Source: an uncultured bacterium | GTDB lineage: Bacteria; Patescibacteriota; JACMRA01 | NCBI GenBank assembly: GCA_963784355.1 | Contig: CAWAQU010000009.1 | Span: forward strand, 1 to 64,000 | Reading direction: 5' to 3' | DNA length: 64,000 nt | Part shown: positions 1 to 17,551 of the stretch, one piece after another | Layout: each line of letters opens with the position of its first letter | Position numbering within the stretch: position 1 is the first letter of the stretch | Translations under genes and position numbers: made by a program | Notes under the pieces: generated by a model | What the model was told of the DNA's origin: nothing | Seen by the model: the letters and a program-made list of their open reading frames with translations, nothing else | Databases searched by the model: none

Positions 1-36
1 TTATTAATTGAAATATGAATATCACTCATAGCTTTT

Positions 37-1906
<1,870 letters not shown>

Positions 1907-2106
1907 ATATATACTACAGATGCTTTTTTTCACTTTAGTCAAATCCAAAATTTCGGTTGCTTGACAAAATCAGCTTTTGATATTAAGAACAGTTTTCTAC
2001 ACAGATTTTAGGCAGATTTGTAGTTTACTCTAAAAACATACTTTTATAGAATTTGTCTGTACGATAATTATAACAACATAGTAAAGGTAAAATATACACT
2101 TGGAAC

Positions 2107-2129
2107 AAAAAAAGCAGTGGTTAAACTGC
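2107..2129 (-). terminator. Intrinsic terminator after ssb
   Basis: minus strand GCAGT-ttaacc-ACTGC followed by T7. Confidence 0.6.
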
Positions 2130-2184
2130 CTTAAATTCTGATTTATCAAGCTTTTTGATGCTATAGATTCAGTCAACTGAAGGA

Positions 2185-2658
2185 TTAAAATGGCATTTGT
2201 ACGTTTATGCTGTCCACGTCAATTTCCGGAATATTATCATCTTCGTCATCGGCTGGTTTAGCTTTTTTTGCGCTACCTCCTGCACTTCCACTAGCTGAGC
2301 CTGCTCCGTCTTGACTTTGCTGTGCTTGCATCTTTTCTACATCACTTTTAGAAGACAAGATTTCTAATTCTCTTACAACTACATCAGTTGCATAGCCTTT
2401 TGTACCATCAGGTTTGTCCCAGCTTCGGTTCTGCAATCTTCCTACTACAGCTACTTTAGTACCTTTTTTGACATATTGCTCCAGAATATCAGCTAGTTTC
2501 TCCCAGGCTGACATATTGAAGTACTGCACAAGTTCCTGCCCGTTTGAATCTTTACCCTCATTAACAGCGATGCTAAAACTAGCAACTTTTTTTCCACTAG
2601 AAGTTGATCTGATTTCAGGATCTTTAGTTAAATTTCCGATTAAAATTACTTTATTCAT
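2185..2658 (-). CDS. ssb: Single-stranded DNA-binding protein
   Basis: MNKVILIGNLTKDPE, OB fold, acidic tail ending in MPF. Confidence 0.97.
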   Translation of the reverse strand: MNKVILIGNLTKDPEIRSTSSGKKVASFSIAVNEGKDSNGQELVQYFNMSAWEKLADILEQYVKKGTKVAVVGRLQNRSWDKPDGTKGYATDVVVRELEILSSKSDVEKMQAQQSQDGAGSASGSAGGSAKKAKPADDEDDNIPEIDVDSINVQMPF

Positions 2659-2671
2659 ACTTTATATTAAA

Positions 2672-2938
2672 TTAAATGTTTGTGTCTATGTCCTTAGACT
2701 GTGAGTTTAAATTATTATTTTGTCTAGAAAAGTATACGAAAATTAAATATAAAACGTAGCCTATAAATTCATATACCAACCAAAATATACCTAACATTGC
2801 TAAAAGTCCTGACCAATTTAAAGTTACTTCTTGATCCGGTCTTGCATAAATGTAGATTAAAAAGAAAACCATGCTGATAACCGCAGCCAAAAGCCTTGAA
2901 ATTACCTCTTCTATTCCTGCAAAAAAATTTTTATTCAT
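2672..2938 (-). CDS. Small membrane protein (2 TM), unknown function
   Basis: two hydrophobic helices; co-oriented with and 13 bp upstream of ssb. Confidence 0.7.
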   Translation of the reverse strand: MNKNFFAGIEEVISRLLAAVISMVFFLIYIYARPDQEVTLNWSGLLAMLGIFWLVYEFIGYVLYLIFVYFSRQNNNLNSQSKDIDTNI

Positions 2939-3030
2939 AATATTGTTGTTTATTGTTTGCTATTGCTTACCAACCAAGACATAAGATATGGATGGTTTCT
3001 TGTCAATTAAATCTTTTGATTAAAATGTTT

Positions 3031-3435
3031 TTAAGCCAGCCCTCTAGCCTCTTCTCTATCCAGGTCTCGTTTTTTAATATCATCTCTTTTGTCAAAATTT
3101 TTCTTTCCTTTAACTAGAGCAACCTCCGCTTTTATCCATCTACCTACAGTTTTGATATTTAATACAGTACAACTGACACCTTTTTCTTTTAAAGCCCCAT
3201 GAATCTCATTTACTTCGCGTTGTTGCAAAAGTAGTGGCACATTTTCCCTGGTTTTATCGTTACCAAAGCCAATTATTTGCAATTTTCCTTTCTGATAAAT
3301 AATATAACTTCCGGTGATTTGCACCCTTTTTTGCCTCAACTCTTTTACCATCCTTCCGGACAACGAAAGCCCAGCCTGAAAAGATTCCAGGATATGATAA
3401 TCAAAAAAAGCTTTTTTGTTGTTCGCTAAAACCAC
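3031..3435 (-). CDS. smpB: SsrA-binding protein (shortened)
   Basis: NKKAFFDYHILESFQAGLSLSG, KGKKNFDKRDDIKKRD. Confidence 0.95.
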   Translation of the reverse strand: MVLANNKKAFFDYHILESFQAGLSLSGRMVKELRQKRVQITGSYIIYQKGKLQIIGFGNDKTRENVPLLLQQREVNEIHGALKEKGVSCTVLNIKTVGRWIKAEVALVKGKKNFDKRDDIKKRDLDREEARGLA

Positions 3436-3537
3436 ACTTTAATCTTACATATAAATTATTTTGCGTCAATTTTTATATGCACTTTCCGTTCTGGTCTCTT
3501 TACAAATTGCAGATTTTAATTTAAATACTAGATATTA

Positions 3538-3624
3538 GCGTGAGTGGTGGAACGGTAGACACACTGGCTTCAGGTGCCAGCGGGACCTAGTCCTGTAAGG
3601 GTTCAAATCCCTTCTTGCGCACCA
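3538..3624 (+). tRNA. tRNA-Leu(CAG)
   Basis: anticodon arm ctggc-tt CAG gt-gccag, long variable arm, GGTTCAAATCC, CCA end. Confidence 0.95.
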
Positions 3625-3681
3625 AATTTAGTCTTCAGTTGACATTTTATATATTTTTGGTAAAAATTAAACTATACATAT

Positions 3682-3755
3682 TCGGGGATCGTCTAGTGGT
3701 AGGACGACGGGTTTTGGTCCCGTTAACCGGAGTTCGAATCTCTGTCCCCGAACCA
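3682..3755 (+). tRNA. tRNA-Gln(TTG), integration target
   Basis: acceptor tcgggga/tccccga, anticodon arm acggg-tt TTG gt-cccgt, GTTCGAATC, CCA end. Confidence 0.95.
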
Positions 3756-5195
3756 ATGTTGCTTATCAGCATTTTTATACAAAAACAAAAACGGTTTTTT
3801 CAGATTAAATTCAGCTTTTTGGCCTGTTTGAAGTGAGTTCGAAATAAGATATTTCAGAATTTGATTTTTTTCATGTGAATTCGAACTTTTAAATACTTCA
3901 GGTAAACGATTTATTAGATTAAATAGGCTAGAAACGGTTAAATGAAGGTCAGTTGATTCTCTGGTTTCATGGCTCAGTTCAAGATTTAATTCATATATTT
4001 TTGATTCATACTCCTGTTGCTTTTTAGTATAATCATCTTTGGTAATACTACCATCTACAAATAAGTCTGTAAGTCTGGACCGTCTATCCTCAAACTTCTC
4101 TATTTCATTATTTAATTTAATCCGTTGTTGTTTCTGATACAGGCTTTCATTATTGAAATCATTTTTCAGTTTTTCAACTATAAATTCTACGGCTTCACTT
4201 GGAAAAACAAGATTCGTTAAAATATTTTCAGCCTGCTTTAGCAGTACTTCTTCCTTTATTACCTGCTGGTAATATATACAATCTTTATTTATACATCTAT
4301 GGTAATTATAAGTTTGTTTTGCAGTATAGGGATTTATGGTTCTATTGCATTTAGAGCAAGTCAAAAGATTTCTGAAAGGATAAGGTTTAAAACCTCTTTT
4401 TTGTTTTTTGCCTGAGTTCTGGTTTTGATTTAAAATAGCCTGACATTTATCAAAAATAATTTTGGTGGTAAGCGGCTTATAGATATGCCGGTAATTTCCG
4501 TATTTACTTTTAGCTAAGCCATAGTAAAAGGAGTTGTTTAAAGTCTTATTTAAAGTCTGTCTGGTTAGTTTCTTACCCTTGTTTGTTTTAAAGCCCTTCT
4601 TATTCAAATAATCACATAATTCAGCTTGATTGTAGTTTCCTGTCCTAAACAAGTTAAAAGCCTCGGAAATTAGCTCTGATGAGTCTGTTGTATCTACTTG
4701 TCCATTTTGTCTGAAATAGCCTTCAGGAAATTTATATACAATACCTTGTGCACGACTTTCTTTCATTCCTTTTCTGACATGCTTTTTTAGACTATTAACG
4801 TATATTTTAGCGCCTAAAATATACATGTCCCACTGCAAAGAAACTTCTAAAAAGTTATCTTCCCTGACAACCAAAGATTCTTTAATAAAATGAACTTCTA
4901 AATTTTTATTCATTATCATTTTTTCCAGAATTGTACTTTCTTTAAAACCTCTTTGAAGCCTATCAACACAATGGACCACTAAAGCTATAGTTTCTTTTTG
5001 TTTGTGAATAAACTCCAAACACTTATTCAACTCATCTCTTTCATCTATAGTTGCTGACTCCTGAAATTCAAATAATTTAAGTAGTTCGAGCCTGTTTTCT
5101 TTAACATACTTACCACATTCCCGCTTTTGAGCGTCCAAAGATTTGCCCTTGATTTGGTCCTCGCTTGATACCCTGGATAAAATTATTGATTTCAT
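3723..5195 (-). CDS. Large serine recombinase/integrase (integrated-form C-terminus read from tRNA antisense)
   Basis: LSRVSSEDQ catalytic Ser, DRLQR, recombinase domain, CSKC..HRC..C zinc ribbon, coiled coil; ends WFGDRDSNSG inside tRNA-Gln. Confidence 0.95.
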   Translation of the reverse strand: MKSIILSRVSSEDQIKGKSLDAQKRECGKYVKENRLELLKLFEFQESATIDERDELNKCLEFIHKQKETIALVVHCVDRLQRGFKESTILEKMIMNKNLEVHFIKESLVVREDNFLEVSLQWDMYILGAKIYVNSLKKHVRKGMKESRAQGIVYKFPEGYFRQNGQVDTTDSSELISEAFNLFRTGNYNQAELCDYLNKKGFKTNKGKKLTRQTLNKTLNNSFYYGLAKSKYGNYRHIYKPLTTKIIFDKCQAILNQNQNSGKKQKRGFKPYPFRNLLTCSKCNRTINPYTAKQTYNYHRCINKDCIYYQQVIKEEVLLKQAENILTNLVFPSEAVEFIVEKLKNDFNNESLYQKQQRIKLNNEIEKFEDRRSRLTDLFVDGSITKDDYTKKQQEYESKIYELNLELSHETRESTDLHLTVSSLFNLINRLPEVFKSSNSHEKNQILKYLISNSLQTGQKAEFNLKKPFLFLYKNADKQHWFGDRDSNSG

Positions 5196-5590
5196 ATTTG
5201 GTCTACTAAATGCTTAATTTCTTTATCAAAGTCCTTTTTTAATTCACATTCCCATAAAGTTATTACTTTCCAGGTACTGCTTTTAAGCCACTCTTTTGTT
5301 TGTGCATCCCTTTTAATATTGGACATAATTTTATTTTCCCAAAAATCAATTTTAGTACTTGGCAACTTTGATTTCTCACAACCATGCCCGTGCCAGAAAC
5401 ATCCGTTTATAAAAACTGCTATTTTCTTTTTAAGAAAAACTATATCTGGACTTCCCTTTATTTTATAATGGATTCTATATCTAAAACCTTCTGCATATAG
5501 TCGCTTTCTTACCGCCAACTCTAAAGAAGTGTTTTTACTTTTCACTTTTGACATGTTTTTGCTTCTTTGAGCCGGGGTAATTCTATCCAT
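5192..5590 (-). CDS. vsr: Very short patch repair endonuclease
   Basis: RSKNMSKVKSKNT..E, GSPDIVF, FINGCFWHGH, WECE. Confidence 0.96.
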   Translation of the reverse strand: MDRITPAQRSKNMSKVKSKNTSLELAVRKRLYAEGFRYRIHYKIKGSPDIVFLKKKIAVFINGCFWHGHGCEKSKLPSTKIDFWENKIMSNIKRDAQTKEWLKSSTWKVITLWECELKKDFDKEIKHLVDQI

Positions 5591-6675
5591 TACTTAAATC
5601 TTATTTGGAGTGATAAATCAAAATAAATTTTATTGTTTGTAAATCTAAATGAGCCGTATTTATGCCTTGAAGATGACGGACTTTCAAAGTATACCGATTT
5701 TAAAAGATAGTCTTTAAACTGATCTTGATTATAAACATGATAACAGACTATCTCACCATCTTCTTTAACTATTAAATATCCGCCATAAACCTCATCATAG
5801 CCTGTCCAAACTTTGCCTGGACTCATTCCAAGAGCTGAAGCCCAAAGTAGGTTCTTTATTTTAAACTCATAGTCTTCCTTTTCAAGATCTAGATCTGAAA
5901 GTAGCTTACAAAATTTAGGGTCTATGGTAATGTCTGAAATAGTGCGTTTATTTGAAATATAAGAGTATTTTAGAAGTTCAGCCGTTATTTTATCCATAGC
6001 AGTGTCAATACGTCTCAAATTCTTCCTGAAAGTATCGGATTCTACTTTTTCAAATTCCAGACTTCCGCCTTTATCATATAGTGATTTTACTCTATCAAGG
6101 ACCTTAGCTTTTGTTTGTATCTGATTAATTTCTTCAGCTGTACTTTCACTAATTCCTTTAACTTCATAAACTATCCTGGTATGGTCAGAGGCGTTTAATA
6201 AGGTTGCATTACCCCCTAATTGTGATTTAATACTAAATCCCACAGTTTGATTTGTGTTTACTGTTATATCGTGAATAACAAGGGTAATATCGGATTTGTT
6301 TTGTGAAGCAGATTTTACAGTAGTGCAGTTTAGATTTTTAAATGCATCTTCAATATTATCTATTGATATAGTTCCGTTTTCGGACTCTTTTATACTTTTC
6401 AGCACATTTAATGCAGTATTTTTTAACTTGCTCCTAGAAATGTAATCTTTAAAAGTATTAGTAGAATTTTTAATAATTACTTCTGTTTCTTCAATTGTAT
6501 AAATAGTATCAGGTTTTTGTGCTTCAGACCTTAAAATTTGAAAAATTGGATAAACTATATCCTCTAAAGCTTTAAGGTTTTCGTCTGCACCATGTACCTT
6601 ACCATCTGCAAGTAATTTTACTAATGTATAAAACTCGCTCCATTCGCCTCTGTTTGCTGAAATTATTTTATTCAT
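5590..6675 (-). CDS. HpaII-family type II restriction endonuclease
   Basis: NRGEWSEFY..KLL, KSDITL, GFSIKSQLG..TLLNAS, LGMSPGKVW.G, FESPSSSRH, LSLQIRF. Confidence 0.88.
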   Translation of the reverse strand: MNKIISANRGEWSEFYTLVKLLADGKVHGADENLKALEDIVYPIFQILRSEAQKPDTIYTIEETEVIIKNSTNTFKDYISRSKLKNTALNVLKSIKESENGTISIDNIEDAFKNLNCTTVKSASQNKSDITLVIHDITVNTNQTVGFSIKSQLGGNATLLNASDHTRIVYEVKGISESTAEEINQIQTKAKVLDRVKSLYDKGGSLEFEKVESDTFRKNLRRIDTAMDKITAELLKYSYISNKRTISDITIDPKFCKLLSDLDLEKEDYEFKIKNLLWASALGMSPGKVWTGYDEVYGGYLIVKEDGEIVCYHVYNQDQFKDYLLKSVYFESPSSSRHKYGSFRFTNNKIYFDLSLQIRFK

Positions 6676-6677
6676 AA

Positions 6678-7742
6678 TTAAATTAAATCCAAACTGCTTA
6701 AAATTTGTTTTGCAGTGGCTTGAATTGCAGGAACTGCTACACTGTTTCCCAATTGCTTCATTGCTTGTGTTTCTGAAACTGGCATTATAAATCCTTTAGG
6801 AAAGCCTTGCATTTCCAAACCTTGTTTAGGATTAAGCCTTACTTCCACGCCATCAACAATATAACAATCCCAATTTCTTCTGTCATTTACCCCAGAACCT
6901 CGCCCCCCAACTCTTAGTGTGTAACCAACATTTTTCTTACATTCTCCCCCTAAAATATCTGACATAGTTTTTTTTAATGGTGTAGGATCTGGCCATTTAA
7001 AAGGTTTTAGTTCATTTTTAAATCCAACCATAAATAATCTTGGCCTGTGCTGGGGTACACCATAATTATCAGCTTTTATAACTTTATAATAAAATGAGTA
7101 ACCTAAATCTTCAGTTACAACTTTTTTTATTACCTCAAATGTTTTGCCATTATCATGGTTAAACAAACCCCTAACATTTTCAAGAAAAATTGCTTTTGGC
7201 TGCTTTTCCTTAATTATTTTTGCTATATCAAAGAAGAGCGTACCTCTAGTATCTCCAAAACCCTTTTTAAATCCTGCATTGCTGAAAGGTTGACACGGAA
7301 AACCTGCACAAAGAATATCGAAATCAGGAATTAGCTTAGGATCTTGTTTTGTAATATCCTGGTTAAAATTGCCAGACTCAAACAGTTCTTTTTCGTCTTC
7401 ATAAAAATTTGCCATGTATGTAAGTCTTGCAGACTCATTAATTTCACTTGCAAATACGCACTGTCCTCCTAGGTTTTTAAAAGCAATGTGGAAACCTCCT
7501 ATTCCAGCAAACAAGTCAATAAACTTAAATTTTGTTTCTCTTATCTCTTTTACAGGGTTATAAAACAGACTTTGCTCTTTTAGTGTATAAATGAAATTTT
7601 GAAGATTGCTTGTATCGATACGGTATTCTCTACCTATTTTATAAGCCTGTATTTTTTTCGACTTAATATATCTTCTTATGGTTAAATCACTTAAATTAAG
7701 CTGTTTTGCAACTTCACCAACTGTATAATAATTTATGTTCAT
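6678..7742 (-). CDS. DNA cytosine-5 methyltransferase with N-terminal excisionase-like HTH
   Basis: YTVGEVAKQL..TIRRYIK..AYKIGREYRI HTH, then DLFAGIGG, GFPCQPFS, ENV, QHRPR, QLGNSVAV. Confidence 0.95.
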   Translation of the reverse strand: MNINYYTVGEVAKQLNLSDLTIRRYIKSKKIQAYKIGREYRIDTSNLQNFIYTLKEQSLFYNPVKEIRETKFKFIDLFAGIGGFHIAFKNLGGQCVFASEINESARLTYMANFYEDEKELFESGNFNQDITKQDPKLIPDFDILCAGFPCQPFSNAGFKKGFGDTRGTLFFDIAKIIKEKQPKAIFLENVRGLFNHDNGKTFEVIKKVVTEDLGYSFYYKVIKADNYGVPQHRPRLFMVGFKNELKPFKWPDPTPLKKTMSDILGGECKKNVGYTLRVGGRGSGVNDRRNWDCYIVDGVEVRLNPKQGLEMQGFPKGFIMPVSETQAMKQLGNSVAVPAIQATAKQILSSLDLI

Positions 7743-7750
7743 AAAAATAA

Positions 7751-7781
7751 TTATATATCAATATATATCAACATCTATCAA
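7751..7781. promoter_or_regulatory. Three 10-bp-period direct repeats over the MTase promoter
   Basis: ttatatatca/atatatatca/acatctatca; minus-strand TATAAT 7 nt before the ATG. Confidence 0.55.
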
Positions 7782-8888
7782 TTATTTGTCAAATCTCAGC
7801 TCTTTGTCAATATCCTCAAACCAACCAAAACAATCTTGTATATCTGTAGCTTGATTGATTTTTTCAAGTTCTTTGACAAATCTGGACCAGTTTTTACCAT
7901 TCAGCTTTTTTTCATAAATTTTTCTAAGCTCTGACAGCCCTTTCTCTTTTGCTAGAGTATTTACACCAATTAGTCTAAAAAGTTCGTTAGCTTTGATTTT
8001 TGAGTAGCTTGTTAGCAGCCTATCAATAAGTAAATCAGATTTGTTAATTTTATTAAATAAAAATCTATTTTTATCTACAATCAAATTTTGCCAGTAGTGG
8101 TTTATGAGTTTTTTCCAAAGTAATTCACTAAATAAATCTTCAAAATATAAAATATCTATTTGGAATCCTAGCTTGCCTAATACTTGCCTCATCTTTGCCT
8201 TATTTCTTAACCTTATTTCAAATCTGATTATTTCTTGTTTTTGATTGTCATTGTATTCTTGAAACAAATCTTTTTGTAGGTCATTTCGGTCATTGTCTAC
8301 AGCTCTTTTGTTTGGTTTGTTTAGGTCCGCCAGTTTGTCATAAATTACAAAACTATGGGCTTTTGAATAAAACTGTAGAGTTGTACCCGTACCTTCTCTA
8401 TATTCTTTATTATCAAGATCTAATCTTCTATCTAAGGTACACTTATTCAATTCTTGGATAATTTGAAAACTGAAGTAGCCTTTGCTTAGAAATATGTTTT
8501 TGGCTGTATCAAATCCTGAAACTTCAAATTTGGCTGGATTTTCTTTTAACTCAACACCCATTTCTAAAAGCCTTTGATAAACAAACTTGTAAACAAACTT
8601 ATCATCAAAAATACTTAGCTCATTTAGATTGTTTCCATAAATCAACTTGGGAACTGAAAACTCTATTTTCAAATCTCTTTTTGGACCAAAATCCACTCCT
8701 TTACTTCTTGGTGTAATAGTTAGTCTAGGATAATATTTATCTACGGTTTTAAAATTATTTACAAAACTTTTTCCTACAAAACCATGTCTGTAAAGATTTT
8801 CAGCATTTGGACTAAATAAGTCTGGTTTGTTTATCCTATATTCTGCCTCTTTTACCGTTAATATCACTGTATCTAACATATCCATCAC
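7782..8888 (-). CDS. Phage/plasmid-type replication initiation protein
   Basis: MLDTVIL, LKIEFSVPKLIYGNN, D..KN, FVIYDKL, IIRFEIRL motifs resembling gene II/X-like rolling-circle Reps. Confidence 0.75.
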   Translation of the reverse strand: MMDMLDTVILTVKEAEYRINKPDLFSPNAENLYRHGFVGKSFVNNFKTVDKYYPRLTITPRSKGVDFGPKRDLKIEFSVPKLIYGNNLNELSIFDDKFVYKFVYQRLLEMGVELKENPAKFEVSGFDTAKNIFLSKGYFSFQIIQELNKCTLDRRLDLDNKEYREGTGTTLQFYSKAHSFVIYDKLADLNKPNKRAVDNDRNDLQKDLFQEYNDNQKQEIIRFEIRLRNKAKMRQVLGKLGFQIDILYFEDLFSELLWKKLINHYWQNLIVDKNRFLFNKINKSDLLIDRLLTSYSKIKANELFRLIGVNTLAKEKGLSELRKIYEKKLNGKNWSRFVKELEKINQATDIQDCFGWFEDIDKELRFDK

Positions 8889-9162
8889 ATTTTTTATAAA
8901 CTTTATTAAGCTCTTTAGTCACCACATTTTCAATATAGCTACCTACCTCCTTATTTATAGGGTAAAGTATGCTAGTTTCTTTACTTCCAACTATCTTACT
9001 TGGGTAAACTAGCCTGTATAGATTTTGGTTATTTAGCCTTGTATACACAGCTATAGAAGATACAAAAAGACTTTCGTTTAAAACAAAGCTGGCAAAGGCC
9101 ACTAAACCGTTTTTAGGTTTGACCGGTATTATTTGAATTTCGGATATACTTATTTGATTCAT
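8836..9162 (-). CDS. SpoVG-like nucleic-acid-binding protein
   Basis: ISEIQIIPVKPKNGLVAFASFVL..SIAV..LVYP..YPINKE. Confidence 0.8.
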   Translation of the reverse strand: MNQISISEIQIIPVKPKNGLVAFASFVLNESLFVSSIAVYTRLNNQNLYRLVYPSKIVGSKETSILYPINKEVGSYIENVVTKELNKVYKKCDGYVRYSDINGKRGRI

Positions 9163-9187
9163 AACTTTTTGAATTGGCTTGATTAAG

Positions 9188-9346
9188 TTATAGTTTATAA
9201 TTTTCAGGGTTATTTCTCATGTCTATTTCAATCAGCAACTTAAATAAACCTAACAAAGAGTCTTGATCCTCTTTTTCCCATAACTTAGGATCAGAGGCTT
9301 GTAGCTCTAATTTTGACTTGATTAAATTTGCTTGACTTTCAGACAT
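9188..9346 (-). CDS. Small 52-aa hypothetical protein of the element (not in ORF track)
   Basis: MSESQANLIKSKLELQASDPKLWEKEDQDSLLGLFKLLIEIDMRNNPENYKL; first gene of the small ORF-SpoVG-Rep unit. Confidence 0.7.
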   Translation of the reverse strand: MSESQANLIKSKLELQASDPKLWEKEDQDSLLGLFKLLIEIDMRNNPENYKL

Positions 9347-9394
9347 TAAAAAATCCCTAGAATTTATAACTAGGGATACTATAAAATAATTATG

Positions 9395-9434
9395 TGCTTA
9401 AACTTGCTTAAAAATGCTGAATTTTGCTGAAAGC
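9395..9434. promoter_or_regulatory. Four tandem TGCT(T/G)AA repeats at 10-bp period (candidate activator boxes)
   Basis: starts at 9395, 9405, 9415, 9425; adjacent inverted repeat ATCCCTAG..CTAGGGAT at 9353-9377. Confidence 0.6.
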
Positions 9435-9447
9435 TATCTATGAGGCT

Positions 9448-10386
9448 TTATTTTATGTATTTTTCATTTATATAAACGTGATCAGATTTTACTGTTAAAA
9501 AGTCTTTAATTTCAGGCGGTAAATTTCTTCTAAGATAGTAAAATGAGTCTTTACATTTTTTAATGGCATCTTTTTTATTCAGTTCTTCAGGATCATCCAT
9601 TTCTAGCAATTCCGAATAGTGCCAAACCTTTTTCATATTGCTCTTATTTTTGGTTATTATGCCTAAACTCCTATGGACAAAACCCCTTGCAAGTGTTCTT
9701 TGATAATTCCCTACAAATAAAGTAGCAATTTTTGAGTCATAACTAAAATAAGCAGTTTGGTCTGTTTGTAAAGTAGTAGTCATCTGTGTGCTTATGGAAA
9801 GCTTAATATCATTTTTATCCAGAATCACACCAGCATAGGTGTTAGTAAGCCTTTGGTAATCTTGTTCAGGTACAGCGACTAGTTTGTATTTCTTGCCTTC
9901 TTTTTCAAATGTTTGATAAACTTCTAGGCCGTTTTCAGTTACCCCTTCGTCTAATTCAACTACAAGTTGTCTATGTTCGTTATAATCTTTTCTAGCGTAT
10001 TGAAAATCAAATTTTAGGCCTAAAATATCAGCTTTAAAAGATACTAGTGTTTGTGTCCATTGCTTGGAGATTTGCTCTAAAACAGAGTAGGAGTTTATAG
10101 ATTGTGATATTAATTTTAAATAATCTGTTCTAAATTGTATCTGTGCTTGAATGAATGGGTTTATTATATCAGTCATTTTTGGTATTGCAGCCAAAAAGTC
10201 TGCATTAATTGCAGTAATAAAGTTTAAAGACTTATTTAAGTTACTTAAACTATTTAGATCAAACGAATTCAAAGCCTTTTTTGCTTGTAATGTGGCAATT
10301 TTAGCTGTTTGTTTTGCCAATATTGATTGTCCAATCAATGAAGTCTCTTGTGCATTAGTAGATGAAATACTATCGTTGTCAGACAT
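9448..10386 (-). CDS. Hypothetical protein with probable C-terminal winged-HTH
   Basis: 312-aa ORF; C-terminus WHYSELLE..KDSFYYLRRNL..FLTVKSDHVYIN has a helix-helix-hairpin pattern. Confidence 0.55.
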   Translation of the reverse strand: MSDNDSISSTNAQETSLIGQSILAKQTAKIATLQAKKALNSFDLNSLSNLNKSLNFITAINADFLAAIPKMTDIINPFIQAQIQFRTDYLKLISQSINSYSVLEQISKQWTQTLVSFKADILGLKFDFQYARKDYNEHRQLVVELDEGVTENGLEVYQTFEKEGKKYKLVAVPEQDYQRLTNTYAGVILDKNDIKLSISTQMTTTLQTDQTAYFSYDSKIATLFVGNYQRTLARGFVHRSLGIITKNKSNMKKVWHYSELLEMDDPEELNKKDAIKKCKDSFYYLRRNLPPEIKDFLTVKSDHVYINEKYIK

Positions 10387-10551
10387 GCTTTTAAAATCAC
10401 ATTTTAGATAATTACAATCTATAAATTTTTATTTTGCAAATTAAAGCAGTTGTAAAACATTTGTATGCAGTATTTTATATTATAATCTCAGTTTGCCATT
10501 ACTTATTTTATGATATAAACTAGTCAAATTTATAAATATAAACAAAAAAAT

Positions 10552-10950
10552 ATGTCTGATTTAGAATTGAAAAACTTTACTGATATAATATTTTTAGGTG
10601 ATATCACACCTTTAAATGAATCACTTGCTGATTTAGCAATACAAAAACTTCGAATATTTATTCCAGAAGTATTTGTAACAACTTTATTTCAGAGATTTAA
10701 TAGTGGAAATATAGGAAATTTTATTAGTGAATTAGAATCCAGCAAAACATCACTTAAAGATATTTTACTTATTAAATTATTTGTATCTGATAATTCAAAT
10801 TTACTCATTCCTAGAAATAACATCAACATAATTGATTTGATGCTGTTTAACGAAAAAATCAAACAACTTCAAACTGAGGCAAAATCCTTTTTAGCTGCTG
10901 AAAATCCTGTTGTGCAACAGCATGGGCAAATAATTGAGCTTCAGAAATAG
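10552..10950 (+). CDS. Hypothetical protein
   Basis: 132-aa ORF with ATG after a promoter-like TTGCCA..TGATAT; tail overlaps the opposite gene. Confidence 0.55.
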   Translation: MSDLELKNFTDIIFLGDITPLNESLADLAIQKLRIFIPEVFVTTLFQRFNSGNIGNFISELESSKTSLKDILLIKLFVSDNSNLLIPRNNINIIDLMLFNEKIKQLQTEAKSFLAAENPVVQQHGQIIELQK

Positions 10951-11563
10951 TAACACTGGAGGCAATACTAGAGGCAAAGCTTAATTTACTTTCTGACTCA
11001 AAATTAATATCATACGAACTATAATATATAGTTTTAGTTATAATGCTTTGATAAAAAATAAGCAAGCTGGTATACTTACCCTTCACTTTGGTTTGTAGTA
11101 TAGTATCGTTATCTATAGGTAATAAACTGTAATCTTTTACTTTATACCAGTTATTATTATCAAAAACATAAGCTTGTATTTTAATCGCATCTACTTCACC
11201 AACATTTTTTACAATTATCTGTCTTAATTCCTCTTTAATAAAAAATATATTTCCACTTTCTATATTTTCAGGTATTATAATTTTCGGACGACTAAATTCT
11301 AGAGATTTTTTACTTAGGTCTTTTGCTTGTTCAGAAATCTTATTTGCTTGCCAGGCCAGTCTAATCGTTAACAAAGACAGTGCAAATGTAGCAATTAGAT
11401 TAAAGGGATCAATTTGATAACCGGCAATTTTAGTTATGCTTATATACAATCTATGAAGCAGAGGTATAAAATTTATTTTTTCCAGTATAAGAAAAAGTAA
11501 AATTATTGAAACCGATATTCTCCACCAATATTTGGTTATCGAATATATTATGTTTTTGCTCAT
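10859..11563 (-). CDS. Hypothetical membrane protein
   Basis: two N-terminal hydrophobic segments, then ANKIS and a beta-rich domain (IIVKNVGEVDA). Confidence 0.7.
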   Translation of the reverse strand: MSKNIIYSITKYWWRISVSIILLFLILEKINFIPLLHRLYISITKIAGYQIDPFNLIATFALSLLTIRLAWQANKISEQAKDLSKKSLEFSRPKIIIPENIESGNIFFIKEELRQIIVKNVGEVDAIKIQAYVFDNNNWYKVKDYSLLPIDNDTILQTKVKGKYTSLLIFYQSIITKTIYYSSYDINFESESKLSFASSIASSVTISEAQLFAHAVAQQDFQQLKRILPQFEVV

Positions 11564-11711
11564 AGATTTAAATTATTACAGATTAAGGGTACTTTCCAAT
11601 TATGTAAAGCAATAAAAAATCTAGTAAAAATTCATATACTAAAATTACAAATAGTTGAAGATGTTATTTTTGAAAAAGCTTATTAATTTAAGCAAACTTA
11701 ACCATTAGATA

Positions 11712-11813
11712 TTATTCTACCAAATTCATTTCTAGTATATTAAATATTTGGCTAAAAGTTTTTTCAAAGTCAGACCAATTATAAGTTCGAAGTGTGTCAA
11801 TAACGGTGAACCA
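11712..11813 (-). other. Displaced integrase C-terminal coding segment (attP-derived arm)
   Basis: reads WFTVIDTLRTYNWSDFEKTFSQIFNILEMNLVE-stop, in frame with the integrase WF codons at the shared GAACCA core. Confidence 0.75.
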
Positions 11814-11846
11814 AAAACAAAAACTCAATTTATCTTAATTCTCATT

Positions 11847-11870
11847 ATCTCGGTTAATCGCCGGGATTTT
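11847..11870 (+). terminator. Hairpin terminator, probably the original tRNA-Gln terminator
   Basis: ATCTCGG-ttaatcg-CCGGGAT plus T run, 33 bp after the right att core. Confidence 0.5.
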
Positions 11871-11914
11871 ATCTTGTCTAATTTGATTAAATTTTCTATA
11901 CAAATAATAACGAT

Positions 11915-12442
11915 ATGTCTGAAAGTTTCAATAATATACCTAAAAATCCTGAAAATACTTTTTACACAGTTGAACAAGCAAAACAAGTATTTAGTTGGGT
12001 AGTAGAGAAAGCTAAAAAAGATAATATTTATAAGCTTTGTGCAAATCCGGTGATTATTAAGGATAACAAAGTATTGATATTTCAGAGGCCTGCCACTAGT
12101 CCAAATAGACCAAATGGTTGGCTTTTACCTGGTGGAAAAGTAGAGGAAGGTGAGAATGTAGTTGATGCTTTAGTTAGAGAAACAAAGGAAGAGTTAAATT
12201 TAGATGTTGTAAAAATAAGACATCTTCCAATTGAATTTGACAGTATATTTAAAGGAAATTTGTGGAGAGTAGTCTATTTTGTAGTAGAAATCACTGGAGA
12301 AATGAAGTTAGAAGAAAGAGCTTTATCTAATCCAACTTTTATCAGCAAACCTGAAATTCCAAATTATTTCACTCAAGCAGAAATGGACCCCAGTTCACCG
12401 GACTACAGAGGTGGAGAGCTATCAGTTTGGGATTATGTATAA
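11915..12442 (+). CDS. NUDIX hydrolase
   Basis: PGGKVEEGENVVDALVRETKEELNL Nudix box. Confidence 0.92.
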   Translation: MSESFNNIPKNPENTFYTVEQAKQVFSWVVEKAKKDNIYKLCANPVIIKDNKVLIFQRPATSPNRPNGWLLPGGKVEEGENVVDALVRETKEELNLDVVKIRHLPIEFDSIFKGNLWRVVYFVVEITGEMKLEERALSNPTFISKPEIPNYFTQAEMDPSSPDYRGGELSVWDYV

Positions 12443-12507
12443 GTTTGGGATTGGGCCAATTTAGTCCTTAATGCTATTAAAAATGAAATTTTACAAGACA
12501 TAGATTG

Positions 12508-13323
12508 TTAGAACAGATTCTTAATTATTTTTGTTACACCATTAATCATATCTTCTGCATCTTCAGCAGTTGGCTCTGTTATTTTTTTATGATCACAATT
12601 ATTTCTAATATCCGCTAAGTGTTGAATTTTTCTAAAGATTTGAATATCAATAATTTTGTTACTGTATAAAATATCATTATAATTACTGATTGTAGGATTT
12701 TTTTTGAGAGTTAGCAAATGATTTTGACAAACTTGATTAAGGTGACTCTCTAAAACTACCCCTGCCAACGCTCCAGCCGCTCTTGAAAAACCATTTTCAT
12801 TTAAATATTTTGCAGCATCTAACTCAGAATCAAACAAATCAGCTCTAACAAATTGTTGAATATTAAAAAGTGAACTTTCAAATCTTTTTCTAACAGATTT
12901 TAAAATTGCTAATTGTTGTTGAAATTTTGGAAATGCTGAAGATTTTCCAGCAACAACAGCACCATTTGTGGTTTTAGATAATGTAATGTTGCTTAAAGCG
13001 TCCGCAATTACATAGTTAGTTGAATCTATGTCTTGCATACTTCTCCTTTTTGCTGGCACCTCATAATATTCTACAAAATCATCTAATCGATCAGGTAACA
13101 TTAACTTAATTATTGTCTTTGCTTCAGAATACCACTCTTGGTATTCACTTTTGAAATCAGGTAGACTAGAAATAAATTTATCCTCCTCTTTTTTATTTTT
13201 TAGTTTAAGTGCTTGTAAAAAATCTACTTTTGGTACAATTTCGTAGAGTAGAGCATTTTGTAATTTTTTACCTTTTAATATTAACTCTTCCAAATCTTTT
13301 TTATATACATCCAAATTAGACAT
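12508..13323 (-). CDS. HEPN-domain protein (putative RNase/defence)
   Basis: RAAGALAGVVLESHL helix and R-x4-H motif RNNCDH. Confidence 0.7.
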   Translation of the reverse strand: MSNLDVYKKDLEELILKGKKLQNALLYEIVPKVDFLQALKLKNKKEEDKFISSLPDFKSEYQEWYSEAKTIIKLMLPDRLDDFVEYYEVPAKRRSMQDIDSTNYVIADALSNITLSKTTNGAVVAGKSSAFPKFQQQLAILKSVRKRFESSLFNIQQFVRADLFDSELDAAKYLNENGFSRAAGALAGVVLESHLNQVCQNHLLTLKKNPTISNYNDILYSNKIIDIQIFRKIQHLADIRNNCDHKKITEPTAEDAEDMINGVTKIIKNLF

Positions 13324-13580
13324 AAAAATTGTTTATTCTATTTAAATAGTTTCTTACAATCTTTTAAACTATGTTTGAGAATTACAGCCATAGGATAATA
13401 AGTTTTTATACTCATGTTGCAGTAATTAAGCTTTTTTAAGTATCAATTGTCAAACCTTATTTTATTGGTTTTTCTAAGTTTTTCAAATTTGTATCTGTTT
13501 ATTTTCTTTTCAACAAAAGCTCTTGTAAAGAGTAAAAAAATATGCTATAAATAAATAACCGACAAATAAGAGGTAAAAAG

Positions 13581-13814
13581 ATGGGTATTCAAGGTTACTT
13601 CCGCCTGGCAATGATTTCCTATGCGGTTTTTATGCTAGGCCTCGTGTACTCTCTATTCTTAATACCAAATGGTATTATTGATGGAAATAGCCATGGAATA
13701 ATCATGGAGACACTAAAAGAAGATTGTAGTTTCATGGTAATTGCAGGGTTAGTCCTTTTTGCATACTGCATATTAGCTATGGGATTTGTTTCTGAGCGAA
13801 ACCGCCATAGATAA
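13581..13814 (+). CDS. Small 2-TM protein
   Basis: TTGTAA-17-TATAAA promoter, AGAGGT RBS, two hydrophobic helices, own terminator. Confidence 0.7.
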   Translation: MGIQGYFRLAMISYAVFMLGLVYSLFLIPNGIIDGNSHGIIMETLKEDCSFMVIAGLVLFAYCILAMGFVSERNRHR

Positions 13815-13837
13815 TACACAGACATTTGTTATCGGTT

Positions 13838-13871
13838 GCACCTTTTGTTTTTTTGCGAAGGGTGCTTTTTC
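13838..13871 (+). terminator. Intrinsic terminator
   Basis: GCACCTTTTG..CGAAGGGTGC stem followed by T5. Confidence 0.75.
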
Positions 13872-14173
13872 TGTAAAGTTGATCAGACTATTTTTTTAAT
13901 AACAAGAATTTTGGTAGTCTTCTCTTTATGTGTCCATCATTTCAACCATTTACGTACCGAGATTTAGTGCAGCAAACGGGTTTTACCCAGTAATAAATTT
14001 ACTGAATTATATTTTGTGGAAACCCTACAATGTTTTGTAGTTTTTTATAATCTCAATCAAAAATTATTATTAGTTGATAGTATAAGCTAGGGGGCCATAG
14101 CAAATAATTGCTACCAGTTTTTGGTAATTATTGAGCTTTGCTTTAATGGATTTTTTAGTAGCTGGATCACTTG

Positions 14174-14587
14174 TCAAAGCATTCCTGTTTTCTTCAACAA
14201 ACTTTCAAATTTCTTCTCCCGTTTAATATATTGGTCTATATTTGCAAAATACTTAGCTGCATTCTTTTGTTCTTCTTCAATATTCACAGTGTTTTTTATA
14301 TAACCACACCTCGTACAATACCATGGTAGCATACCTGGAGGTGATTCAAAAAGAGATTTGAACCAAAAATTATCTTTTTCATAAGACAAAATCATATGAG
14401 CACAGTAATTTTGAATTTTCAATTTCAGTTTTTGATCACGCCTTTCCAGATATTTGTTCCAATCAAAGGTAATGCTGATTTTAAAAGCAAAAATACTAAG
14501 TAGGGCTAAGAAAATTAATAAGATGACATGCCCTATTGTTAATTGATCCAGTCTGGTATTAATTACGCTATTATACAAATCATTCAT
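14174..14587 (-). CDS. Hypothetical membrane-anchored protein with CxH..CxxC
   Basis: one TM helix, then CAH and CTRC possible metal ligands. Confidence 0.65.
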   Translation of the reverse strand: MNDLYNSVINTRLDQLTIGHVILLIFLALLSIFAFKISITFDWNKYLERRDQKLKLKIQNYCAHMILSYEKDNFWFKSLFESPPGMLPWYCTRCGYIKNTVNIEEEQKNAAKYFANIDQYIKREKKFESLLKKTGML

Positions 14588-14944
14588 AAAGTTTATTCGT
14601 TAACATTGTTGCGGTTCGCTCCAAACCCTCTATTTATTCACATTTGATTGTTATTTAATATTATTAATATCTATGTTTTTTTGCTTCCAATCTTAGTTTT
14701 TTCTAAAGTTCTTCCTCTTAATATTAGAGCAATTCATTCTCTTTAATCATGGTTTGTCAAATTTTGGGACGCTATTAATTTACCCAAGGTACCTATAATA
14801 TTATATCTTAGACATGTTATATAAGCTTAACTTACAAATGTTGTAATATATTATAGTAGAACTTCATCTCCACACTAAAATTTCTGAGCCCTTGACAAAA
14901 GCCCATATGATGCTAACATTTAAGCCATTTCTAAATATAAGCAT

Positions 14945-15433
14945 ATGACAAACCAAACTGTAGATTTAGACAAACTAGCCGCTTTTCCGGACCAAACCAA
15001 AGAAGATGTAGCCAAAACATTGGCATCTACTCTAGAAAAAATGCCTGCTGCGGCCATAGAAGAAAATTATTTGGAAGTCGGGGTGAGACCTTGGGGGGTT
15101 TATTATGTTTTGGAGGATAAGCCAAGCTATAAAGTCAAGAAAATCTTGGTAAATCCAGGTCATAGACTAAGTTTACAGAGCCATAAACACCGCTCGGAGC
15201 ACTGGGTTGTTGTTACAGGAACTGCTAGCGTAGAAATTAGAGACAACACCAAACCTGAAACTGATTGGAATTTTGACCTACATCCAAACGAAAGTTGCTA
15301 TATTAAAGTAGATAACATCCACAGGGTTGCTAACCATGGTAAAATTCCTCTAGTTTTTGTTGAAGTCCAAGTAGGGGAATATACCGGGGAAGATGACATT
15401 GTCAGATATGAAGATGACTACGCCAGAACTTAA
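14945..15433 (+). CDS. Phosphomannose isomerase type II C-terminal cupin protein
   Basis: RPWG.Y, LSLQSHKHRSEHWVVV, EVQVGEYTGEDDIVR. Confidence 0.93.
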   Translation: MTNQTVDLDKLAAFPDQTKEDVAKTLASTLEKMPAAAIEENYLEVGVRPWGVYYVLEDKPSYKVKKILVNPGHRLSLQSHKHRSEHWVVVTGTASVEIRDNTKPETDWNFDLHPNESCYIKVDNIHRVANHGKIPLVFVEVQVGEYTGEDDIVRYEDDYART

Positions 15434-15444
15434 ATTATATTAGG

Positions 15445-16584
15445 ATGAAAAAAGTACTAATACTAGGCTCCGGAGGACATGGTTGGGAAAGTTTATCTGA
15501 ATTCTTTGACTCTAACAATAACCAAATAGATTTATATACACTTACATCGGACTGGGGTGGCTTTACAGGCACTTTTGGTAGATTGATGGAGGTCGATAAT
15601 GGTATAGTAAATCAAAAATTGCATAAAAAAATTCTTCCTATTTTACCTTGGGGGGATCTAAATAAAATTATCACTTTTTATACTAGCTTGAGATTCGGTA
15701 CAAATGTCGGCCAAACTTTAAATTTTAGGAGCTTCCACATTTACGAAGTTTTACAGGAGTTTGAGATTTTAAGCGATTTTTTGGCTTTAGAACACAGTGT
15801 AATCAAGCATTTTGAAGAATATTTACATGAGTTTTATAATTTATTTGGAGAATATCAACATAAAATTGATCTGATTAAAGCGCCATGTCTAGGCAATCTT
15901 TGGCAACAATATCTATTTTGGCAATTGGATAATATAGAAAGTTGGAATGAGTTTTATCGCTACAAAAATATCCTTCCACAAAATCTGCATTTAAATTTTA
16001 CAGCAGATCAAAGACAGGTTTTAACTGCCCAAACTAGTGATAGTTCAAAAATTATAGGAGAAGAAATTATTGATGTGAGTGAGGTTCCTATCTTACCTGA
16101 AAGCTTAAATTTAGTAAATCTTGATGAACAAAAATCTGAGCTAGAAGAAAATTTATTATCAAAATTAAGATCTGCAGATTGTGTTATTATACCAAACGGG
16201 TCAGTAGCTAACTGGATACCACTTCTAAATAATACTGAAATTTTGGATATTATAAAACACAAAAAACTTATTTGGATTTTGAATCTTTTTCACACTCAAA
16301 ATGAACTTAATATTTCTAAATATTTGGAATATACTGCATCCCTAGGCTTAAACCCTAGCATACTAGCTCCTAAAAAACTACCTCCTGAAGTACCTACAGA
16401 AATTTTAAATCATTATAACCTCGAAAATAAAGTCTTGAACTTTAAATCTGTAGAGGAAATAGACCAAGTTAAGTCAATTGGACTAAATATTAAGTTTGAG
16501 CTGGATTATCAAGTAGACAGTTCTTTCAAATACAGCAAGGCTAGTATTAAGCAGTCAATTTTAAATATATTACATGAATCATAA
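15445..16584 (+). CDS. Divergent YvcK/CofD-family protein
   Basis: VLILGSGGHG, TSDWGGFTG, WGDL, LGNL, IIGEEIID, ADCVIIPNGS. Confidence 0.7.
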   Translation: MKKVLILGSGGHGWESLSEFFDSNNNQIDLYTLTSDWGGFTGTFGRLMEVDNGIVNQKLHKKILPILPWGDLNKIITFYTSLRFGTNVGQTLNFRSFHIYEVLQEFEILSDFLALEHSVIKHFEEYLHEFYNLFGEYQHKIDLIKAPCLGNLWQQYLFWQLDNIESWNEFYRYKNILPQNLHLNFTADQRQVLTAQTSDSSKIIGEEIIDVSEVPILPESLNLVNLDEQKSELEENLLSKLRSADCVIIPNGSVANWIPLLNNTEILDIIKHKKLIWILNLFHTQNELNISKYLEYTASLGLNPSILAPKKLPPEVPTEILNHYNLENKVLNFKSVEEIDQVKSIGLNIKFELDYQVDSSFKYSKASIKQSILNILHES

Positions 16585-17551
16585 AATCAGGTTACACAAA
16601 CAAATAACAGACAATTTGAAACAACTTGATGAACTTGATTACACAAATCCGGAAATTCAAAGGAATATTGAAAATTATGGTGTTTATGTAGATGGAGTTT
16701 TAGTAAATAACCGCTTATCTTGGGTGTATTTGGAAAATACGTTAGATATACATCATTGGCCCAAAAGACAATCCGGAAATTTCGATGAGGTAAAAATATT
16801 GAGTGAAACTGAGGATTATTTAGCTATTTACAAACCAATGGGAGTAGTTGTTGAAAGTGGGGCCGGACATCAAAAAGATAACCTCTTAAATTGGTTAGAA
16901 ACCCAGTATAAATCTAGCTTTTTCTTGATCCACAGATTAGACAAGGATACACAGGGAGTCATGCTGATTGCTAAAAACGAAAAAACTCTAAATTTTTACC
17001 AAGATCAGTTTAGAAATAGAGAAGTTGTAAAAAAATACTTCGCTGTCGTGGGAAAACCTGTGGATAACTTGTGGACTATTGAAAACTGGCAATCACGTGA
17101 TAGGTCTAATCCCCTGAGACAAAAACTTTTTTGGAGTGAGACTAAGGCCATGGAATACGACTCCAACTCACGCCTAGCTAAATCTGTCATCAGACCAAGA
17201 ATAATCTGTCAGGCAACTGGTCAAAGCTTGATTGAAGTAGAGATAAAAACCGGAAGGATGCACCAAATTAGGCTTCAATGCGAGGCTCTGGGCTTTGGAC
17301 TGGTTAATGATAGGGTTTACAATCAAATGATAAAACCAACTGAACTCAACCAAAGTACAACTCACATAATCCCTAACTATAGCATAATTAACAAGAATTT
17401 GCAAGAATTTGAATACATCAAGAAGGTAATCTTTGGACAAACTGAGTATTGTCTTTTATCGAACTACCTCAAAGTCAAAACGCCTGATAATGGTTGGTTG
17501 GAAATCGAATACAGGAATTTGAAGGATTTGCTAGGTACATTTGAATCTTAA
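16574..17551 (+). CDS. RluA-family pseudouridine synthase
   Basis: YKPMG, HRLDKDTQG, TGRMHQIR. Confidence 0.93.
   Translation: MNHKIRLHKQITDNLKQLDELDYTNPEIQRNIENYGVYVDGVLVNNRLSWVYLENTLDIHHWPKRQSGNFDEVKILSETEDYLAIYKPMGVVVESGAGHQKDNLLNWLETQYKSSFFLIHRLDKDTQGVMLIAKNEKTLNFYQDQFRNREVVKKYFAVVGKPVDNLWTIENWQSRDRSNPLRQKLFWSETKAMEYDSNSRLAKSVIRPRIICQATGQSLIEVEIKTGRMHQIRLQCEALGFGLVNDRVYNQMIKPTELNQSTTHIIPNYSIINKNLQEFEYIKKVIFGQTEYCLLSNYLKVKTPDNGWLEIEYRNLKDLLGTFES

Follow-up and report, generated by a model that had tools for sequence, protein, structure and literature searches.

Positions 3750-11814 of the window analysed here (the whole stretch of 64,000 nucleotides (nt), positions 1 to 64,000 of contig CAWAQU010000009.1, assembly GCA_963784355.1, from an uncultured bacterium of the GTDB lineage Bacteria; Patescibacteriota; JACMRA01) probably constitute an 8,058-bp integrative element, which would have been inserted into the 3' end of a tRNA-Gln gene by its own large serine integrase. 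Comparison of the integrase gene with its relatives indicates that integration rewrites the C-terminus of the integrase, and that this is a trait of the whole family. In the explanation that we favour overall, and rate as likely, the exchange of C-terminal tails is mostly a by-product of the way in which the attachment (att) sites are recognised.

According to this explanation the attP site would span the end of the integrase gene, and crossover would take place inside the hexamer TGGTTC, i.e. the codon of W481 and the codon after it (the discriminator base and the end of the acceptor stem in the tRNA gene). Recombination would part the integrase body from its native last 32 codons, which would be left 8 kb away at attR, and would join the body instead to nine codons of antisense tRNA. 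Since identical bases are exchanged, the tRNA-Gln gene would be restored. On its right arm attP would mimic the tRNA, with the T-loop sequence CGAAC located 5 bp farther from the crossover, and this spacing would be how the zinc ribbon of a serine integrase distinguishes attP from attB. The tail of the free form would be a disordered appendage with a modulating role at most.

The integrase gene and its junctions

The integrase is encoded by an open reading frame (ORF) of 490 amino acids at 3723-5195 on the minus strand. A Pfam scan located a Resolvase domain (PF00239, E-value 9e-17) at residues 4-151 and, after a long helix, a Recombinase domain (PF07508, E-value 6.9e-10) at residues 171-258. 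In an alignment of 11 close homologs the catalytic residues R8 and S10 and the cysteines 280, 283, 301 and 306 are invariant, and C280, C283, C301 and C306 provide the four cysteines of a zinc ribbon with an inserted coiled coil. The family PF13408 is precomputed for many of the homologs and was not reported in the window protein at E <= 0.01. Long helices are present at residues 344-392 and 397-421 in the AlphaFold2 model of the homolog P0010. Judged by its sequence, the product of the ORF is a large serine integrase.

The putative target of integration is the tRNA-Gln(ttg) gene (3682-3755, plus strand), which ARAGORN called as complete, with the T-loop GTTCG at 3732-3736 and an encoded CCA at 3753-3755. 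Its upstream partner in the host tRNA pair is tRNA-Leu(cag) (3538-3624, plus strand; also called by ARAGORN). The integrase body stops at W481, whose codon (3753-3755) is the antisense of the encoded CCA, and the next codon, for F (3750-3752), spans the discriminator base along with the two terminal bases of the acceptor stem. The final 11 integrase codons are antisense tRNA-Gln, which encodes the last nine residues, FGDRDSNSG, and the translated ORF ends in ...KQHWFGDRDSNSG.

The W and F codons coincide with the attL core GAACCAA (TTGGTTC on the integrase strand) at 3750-3756, and a repeat search placed a second copy, the attR core, at 11808-11814. Read downward from 11813, the minus strand continues as WFTVIDTLRTYNWSDFEKTFSQIFNILEMNLVE, with the stop codon at 11712-11714. 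This tail exon of the free-form integrase (11712-11813, minus strand), delimited by translation and by homologous tails, comprises W, F and 31 further codons, and body plus tail exon give a free form of 513 amino acids, compared with 490 in the integrated form. A preliminary description of this DNA had reported that the integrase ORF enters tRNA-Gln in antisense, that its W and F codons fall on a core with a second copy 8 kb away, and that 33 codons continue in frame from this second core to a stop at 11712. The overlap was borne out by the ORF list, the tRNA call and the sequence itself, both cores were found at the positions given above, and translation confirmed the continuation.

A word-index search for relatives yielded 46 homologs, the window protein included, and together with the alignment of 11 close homologs 38 loci were gathered (26 from metagenomes and 12 from genomes), 29 of which were examined, the other nine being short partial matches. 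At 17 of the 29 loci the 3' end of the integrase gene is antisense to a tRNA gene (Trp, Gln, Asn, His, Arg, Asp or Pro), and at these the W codon begins exactly at the 3' end of the tRNA. Two loci (L019 and L023) have tRNA-like antisense sequence in which no tRNA was called, seven have a tail that is not derived from a tRNA, and three are cut by the contig end. Many homologs end in strings resembling W-x-(G)-D-R-D-S-N-P, i.e. the translated antisense T-arm of a tRNA. In P0010 (521 amino acids, 56% identical to the window protein), on the other hand, W is followed by QTVADTLRTFDWSCFELTFGQ..., the same tail as that encoded at 11712-11813 and here contiguous with the integrase body. The question raised in the preliminary description, whether homologs share the 33-residue tail, can thus be answered in the affirmative for this protein. 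P0006, with a body nearly that of P0010, ends two residues past W, at WQG.

Both junction states were found for one element. Two metagenome records, L012 and L013, are 100% identical over 11,455 nt (positions 1-11455) through TGGCAG, after which L012 enters tRNA-Trp and L013 enters the tail. Since they share 11.4 kb at 100% identity, the two records represent one element variant in two samples, once with the tRNA junction and once in the attP configuration. They are the natural counterpart of a junction PCR, albeit in relatives rather than in the element of the window. A second pair, L020 and L021, agrees at 94% in the 300 nt leading up to W, and past W the identity falls to 38%.

Seven further islands have a tail of the attP type at the far end; it is encoded on the integrase strand, and the repeated core leads into it in frame. 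Four of them, with elements of 10,222 bp (L017), 8,149 bp (L038), 9,464 bp (L015) and 2,143 bp (L039, with a degenerate integrase), have the tail type of the window itself; the other three (L026, 5,970 bp; L031, 4,539 bp; L045, 7,558 bp) were found by pattern search and are not independent support for the pattern. In all eight islands, the window included, the block that is identical at both ends is only TGG and the next 3 nt (6-10 nt), and crossover must therefore lie in this block, which in the window is TGGTTC. The far-end tails and the two junction states of L012 and L013 support the earlier proposal that excision would give the integrase a different and longer tail while leaving the tRNA intact. 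No terminal overlap indicative of circularity was found in the tail-contiguous contigs L021, L042 and L032, nor in six other whole-contig loci.

In the window alone, neither the core nor the open frame beyond it exceeds chance. GAACCAA occurs 9 times compared with 9.56 expected (63 of 100 shuffles reach 9), and the 20 codons that stay open past the conserved first 13 correspond to P = 0.148 at the local, AT-rich base composition. In addition, the empty site of this species was not found among the genomes searched. All three observations would fit a second GAACCAA that is a chance match, with the true right boundary of the island elsewhere. We nevertheless regard this as highly improbable, and the pairing of the two cores as real, because of the evidence from relatives. 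A 39-nt stretch beyond the second core (11775-11813, minus strand), the conserved arm of attP (P' half-site), is kept in seven other loci (P0010/L013, L015, L017, L028, L032, L038 and L039), and this motif occurs a single time in the window even when up to 3 mismatches are permitted. The tail in P0010/L013 is contiguous with the integrase body, and backbone genes occupy the interval between the cores of the window in the same order as in L017 and L038. Finally, a consensus scan detected a terminator-like hairpin with a T run (11847-11867, plus strand) on the tRNA strand 33 nt past the core, where 1 was found and 0.2 expected, and comparable hairpins lie directly past the far-end core in L015 and L039, i.e. 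in all three loci scanned, the window being one of them.

The left boundary is also seen in a genome of the same genus (G001, locus L051), in which smpB, tRNA-Leu and tRNA-Gln stand in the same order with no integrase. The similarity between G001 and the window ends at CCA, and since the DNA downstream in G001 is unrelated, only the left boundary is confirmed by this comparison. A search of 41 genomes with the right-flank DNA matched only the 271-residue gene at 12508-13323, in two genomes, and gave no syntenic empty site. As another att candidate we considered the 13-nt direct repeat CAAAAACAAAAAC, present at 3780-3792 inside the integrase gene and at 11812-11824 just outside the right core. 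It was rejected as being at chance level (3 matches with at most 1 mismatch compared with 1.15 expected; 10 of 100 shuffles reach 3). Its distance from TGG is unequal at the two ends, and a similar T-rich word in L017 is found at yet another distance.

The hairpin at 11847-11867 is probably the native terminator of the tRNA-Leu/tRNA-Gln unit, displaced 8 kb by the insertion. This bears on a possible consequence at the RNA level, namely that the mRNA of the integrated integrase would lose its own 3' end and run antisense into two tRNA genes, and that the tRNA unit, having lost its terminator, would read antisense into the integrase gene, with the effect that expression would be damped. The integrase gene indeed converges on tRNA-Leu and tRNA-Gln, the hairpin is the only terminator-like structure near either junction and is now 8 kb downstream of the tRNA, none was detected by the consensus scan on either strand at 3300-5800, and the displaced hairpin recurs in L015 and L039. 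On the other hand, the proposal is read from the gene layout and from a simple consensus scan, and the integrase gene seems to lie at the end of a tight gene run that includes a restriction-modification system, a run which may be strongly transcribed regardless of the tRNA unit. An effect of this kind seems to us quite unlikely, albeit compatible with the recombination scheme outlined above.

The size of the family was estimated by a profile search of 1.84 billion representatives, which gave 15,787 proteins at E <= 1e-30, with ordinary serine integrases expected to make up many of them. The best 150 of these were sorted by an automated tail rule. W followed by an antisense-tRNA tail was assigned to 69, a similar tail without W in register to 29, the W-x7-R-T tail to 12 and an end 1-4 residues after W to 16, the remaining 24 being other or truncated. 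By eye about half of the 29 proteins in the class lacking W were misfiled, and this class includes two more R-T tails and six short ones. As far as can be judged from these C-termini, an att site within the integrase gene is a trait of a large family and not an oddity of the window. The family offers a clear natural case in which the location of a gene determines the C-terminus of its product, with many diverse relatives and one of them in both junction states. Some members (P0049, P0051, P0056, P0062, P0120, P0133 and others) have an antisense-tRNA tail with L or M in place of W. Their target tRNA genes probably have no encoded CCA, and the invariant W of the close subfamily would therefore simply reflect encoded CCA ends.

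More complex arrangements were seen at three loci. L029 (positions 10001-17081) lies on a contig of 792 kb. Its integrase ends in a tail of the attP type, and 5.5 kb beyond it comes the ORF of a second, distant serine recombinase (15439-17016, 525 amino acids), which abuts an antisense tRNA-His; this looks like two tandem elements at one tRNA, the outer integrase bearing the tail of the inner element. On L028 (positions 1-1577 of a 3-kb contig) the 3' fragment of an integrase gene is followed by a tail-type site in a different frame, then by an unrelated ORF of 265 amino acids, a further integrase 3' fragment and finally tRNA-Trp; these look like decayed tandem remnants. An interpretation of L028 as a simple island of 1,310 bp was rejected, as the contig begins with the 3' fragment of another integrase in a different frame. 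In a genome of the same family (L056, G016:C3, positions 1503-1800) about 70 last codons of a related integrase stand beside tRNA-Gln, which suggests an island decayed at the same site.

The free tail as DNA site and as protein

Aligned as codons, eight tails of the subfamily share the pattern TGG nnn ACC GTn nnn GAy nCA yTT CGA ACT TwT rAy TGG. The variable columns number 8, 7 and 9 of 17 at the first, second and third codon position, respectively (first 17 codons, eight tails), with no third-position bias. Such an even spread is, as far as alignment can tell, the behaviour of a DNA site and not that of a protein under purifying selection. The codons for L/F-R-T in the tail contain TTCGAAC, the palindromic heart of the tRNA T-loop. 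Counting along the integrase strand from the T of TGG, one finds CGAAC at +19 to +23 in tRNA-type junctions with the usual T-loop (3732-3736 on the plus strand of the window) and at +24 to +28 in the tail of the window (GTTCG on the plus strand, 11785-11789), i.e. 5 bp farther away than in the tRNA. Among contiguous tails that had not been selected by motif, CGAAC occupies +24 to +28 in L013, L032, L029 and L043, while AGAAC is found there in L042 and GGAAC in L046. The dipeptide R-T is present at W+8/W+9 in P0016, P0022 and P0026 and in 12 of the 150 family representatives.

An offset of this size has been described for the A118-type integrase, in which the motif recognised by the zinc-ribbon domain occupies positions 16-24 of an attP half-site and positions 11-19 of an attB half-site (Rutherford et al. 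2013, PMC3783163). The sites analysed here likewise have the distal motif 5 bp nearer the centre in attB, on one arm only. If the published offset is applied to them, with the zinc ribbon as the domain that would read the motif, the crossover dinucleotide would therefore fall at about +4/+5, within the shared block. We infer that one arm of attB is the part of the tRNA from T-loop to CCA and that attP imitates it with a displacement of 5 bp, which would explain the seven tRNA species used by the relatives. The W-x7-R-T peptide motif of the free tail would then be mostly a translated DNA site. These sites suggest how a single serine-integrase family can use many tRNA genes, the attB arm being the conserved T-loop and CCA end, and they provide a new and highly regular series on which the published model of zinc-ribbon spacing can be tested. 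They also carry two warnings for annotation, as integrase C-termini such as ...DSNP are antisense tRNA, and what looks like a conserved W-x7-R-T peptide would for the most part be the translation of a DNA site.

Several observations speak against the explanation favoured here. Neither an empty site nor a circle junction of this element was seen in any contig or relative searched, and in G001, the closest genome, synteny does not extend past tRNA-Gln. L021 violates the offset rule, with TTCAAA at +21 and CGAAC at +29. The last 7 or so codons before W, which form the left arm of attP, are variable, and an inverted copy of the right-arm motif was not found in them by eye; attP must therefore be very asymmetric, or the assumed centre is off by a few bases. 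The free tails are also longer than chance would predict: past codon 13 there are 283 extra open codons compared with 186 +/- 50 in simulations (P = 0.039; 15 tails, not all of them independent), and at least 21 residues follow W in 14 of the 15. Weaker signs that the peptide itself matters are a Ser at tail position 14 for which five of the eight loci use TCN and L015 uses AGT (the other two lack Ser), the synonymous codons GAT and GAC for the D before the second W, and the occurrence of R-T-x-[D/N]-W also in L045 and P0016, whose identity to the window integrase is only about 32-34%. Finally, residues 490-521 of the P0010 model (W being residue 492) have a predicted local distance difference test (pLDDT) score below 50, compared with a mean of 82 for the model, and this is weak evidence for disorder because the alignment available to AlphaFold2 is shallow at the tail.

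The excess length and the signs of conservation at the protein level would be expected if the tail exchange were an isoform switch, with the 513-residue free form and the 490-residue integrated form differing in activity, directionality or stability. In such a scheme, which we consider unlikely, the exchange would serve as a built-in record of the integration state that replaces or assists a recombination directionality factor, a role to which we assign the same low likelihood. The exchange itself is real and family-wide. Integrated tails are often just 2-3 residues long, such as WQG or WGG, and 16 of the 150 representatives end 1-4 residues after W. No directionality factor was recognised among the island proteins in Pfam and PHROG scans, and the authors of PMC3146451 raise the same possibility for the DsiB integrase. 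Against this stands that the best-conserved residues are those of the DNA motif, with no third-position bias, that no residue is conserved after R-T in the 12 representative R-T tails (which belong to different 50% clusters), and that island L031 has just 14 residues past W. The tail is, moreover, predicted to be disordered, and directionality factors vary so widely among serine integrases that a domain search does not exclude one.

A further constraint comes from the integrated form. Integrated tails are set by the tRNA and often consist of 2-3 residues, and therefore, if excision needs the integrase, a protein that ends just past W must be active. We hold the isoform switch to be less probable than the by-product reading, in which the tail would mostly result from attP lying over the stop region and would itself be nearly neutral. 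That the tail modulates activity or stability has a small but appreciable chance. The same low chance applies to the broader proposal of a self-contained directionality device in the whole tRNA-targeting family, whose free form, with a tail of about 20-40 residues, would be proficient in attP x attB recombination and whose integrated form would be changed in its stability or in its control by the coiled coil.

A real difference in activity between the isoforms would represent a new mode of directionality control, and tRNA-directed integrases of this kind would also have practical appeal for genome insertion. Were the device reading true, the element would sense its own state without a separate directionality factor, and recognition through the universal T-loop and CCA end would provide a natural set of integrases for the tRNA genes of many bacteria. 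The main value of the system lies in its regular set of natural sites and in a directly testable pair of isoforms.

Gene content of the element

From attL to attR all genes are on the minus strand, with the exception of one ORF of 132 amino acids. The genes next to the integrase are cargo. They encode a Vsr very-short-patch mismatch endonuclease (5192-5590; PF03852, E-value 3.6e-29), which overlaps the integrase start by 4 nt, a HpaII-type restriction endonuclease (5590-6675; PF09561, E-value 8e-104), and a C5 cytosine DNA methyltransferase (6678-7742; PF00145, E-value 2.5e-80) with an N-terminal HTH_17 domain of excisionase type (PF12728, E-value 6.2e-11, residues 5-51).

These are followed by the conserved backbone. 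A replication-initiator-like protein of 368 amino acids (7782-8888) matches PF05144 (Phage_CRI; E-value 1.1e-4, 22.4 bits compared with a cut-off of 21.7) and has copies of 57-77% identity in L012, L013, L015, L017 and L038. A SpoVG-like protein of 108 amino acids (8836-9162; PF04026, E-value 2.2e-6, under the curated cut-off) has homologs in L012, L013, L015, L017, L026, L027, L029 and L038. An ORF of 52 amino acids (9188-9346, from the ORF list) gave tblastn matches in L012, L013, L017 and L038 and no PHROG family, and an ORF of 312 amino acids (9448-10386), 46-48% identical in L017 and L038 and partially matched in L015, belongs to no Pfam or PHROG family. The last gene before the tail, an ORF of 234 amino acids (10859-11563), likewise gave no family in Pfam or PHROG, and a PHROG search with six island proteins was without match.

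The initiator, the SpoVG-like protein, the ORFs of 52 and 312 amino acids and the HTH part recur in the relatives, while the cargo varies, and the island is probably a small integrative, self-replicating element with restriction-modification cargo. An assignment as a virus was not adopted, as the viral collection contained no close relative, the best match being 27% identical over part of the protein.

The HTH_17 part (methyltransferase residues 1-56) was matched alone, over 50-55 residues, in L017 (4325-4489), L013 (2038-2196), L012 (2038-2196), L022, L026, L027, L029 and L045, mostly directly after the initiator gene or directly before the integrase. In the relatives this part may form a small DNA-binding protein of its own, a candidate regulator or directionality factor that has been fused to the cargo methyltransferase in the window. 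Just outside the island, the 271-residue ORF at 12508-13323 (minus strand) has copies of 64% and 57% identity in two of 40 related genomes (G011 and G013) and a weak match to phrog_2039 (E-value 1.4e-4). So patchy a distribution hints at a further gene of the mobile or defence type.

Comparison with known systems

Integrases of the SSV1 type in archaeal viruses are tyrosine recombinases with an att site inside their own gene and a tRNA gene as target, and integration splits the integrase gene in two large parts. The window element resembles them in having the att site in its own integrase gene, in targeting a tRNA gene, and in that integration alters the integrase reading frame. It differs in that the enzyme is a serine recombinase, which would lose only its last 32 codons and keep all folded domains; Pfam gives Resolvase and Recombinase and no phage-integrase family, and a tyrosine recombinase fold is thus not indicated. 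In the immunity system of mycobacteriophage BPs, attP lies in the repressor gene, the integrase is a tyrosine recombinase, and integration has been shown experimentally to remove a degradation tag. Common to both systems are an attP in a coding region and an altered C-terminus upon integration, resulting in a state-dependent product. Here, in contrast, the gene crossed by the core is that of the integrase and not of a repressor, and no other minus-strand ORF of at least 40 amino acids spans 11712-11814.

For the canonical serine integrases of A118/LI, Bxb1 and phiC31, attP is found in non-coding DNA beside the integrase gene and attB usually inside a protein-coding gene. In actinophage R4, attP is said to lie in the 3' coding part of the serine integrase gene sre. 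The present system departs from the canonical one in that its attP extends over the stop region of the integrase gene, the 3' end of a tRNA gene serves as attB, and the motif is seen on one arm only. It has in common with the canonical enzymes, as described in PMC3783163, the domain order (resolvase, recombinase, zinc ribbon with coiled coil) and short att sites with a distal motif 5 bp nearer the centre in attB than in attP.

The preliminary description had named SSV1 and BPs as precedents. Both are analogies from tyrosine recombinases, and the closest precedent was omitted, namely DsiB of the ssrA islands in Dehalococcoides (McMurdie et al. 2011, PMC3146451). According to that paper, the dsiB serine integrase gene always overlaps attL at its 3' end, its stop codon sits in ssrA or in a neighbouring island, and DsiB is perhaps, in the view of its authors, fully functional only on the circular element. 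The basic idea of an overlap between integrase gene and attL is thus already in print, for a transfer-messenger RNA (tmRNA) target. In the literature searched, supplements aside, a conserved free tail, a W as antisense CCA and a T-loop mimic with a 5-bp offset were not described for a serine integrase; the 3' overlap was mentioned only in PMC3146451, and no follow-up on dsiB was found.

The comparison with DsiB is drawn from its published description. The paper reports a divergent overlap region, without a conserved free tail, a T-loop mimic or a 5-bp offset. The DsiB module also has a second, small serine recombinase, DsiA, and comprises six genes, whereas a Resolvase domain was found here in only one of the nine island ORFs scanned with Pfam; the 52-residue ORF at 9188-9346 was scanned against PHROGs only and gave no family. 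ARAGORN called no tmRNA gene in the window or in the 10 loci scanned. As far as that description goes, the two systems are alike in having a large serine recombinase at the target-proximal end of the island, with the 3' end of its gene overlapping attL, and unlike in their target, which is the tmRNA gene ssrA for DsiB and here tRNA-Gln, with six other tRNA species in the relatives.

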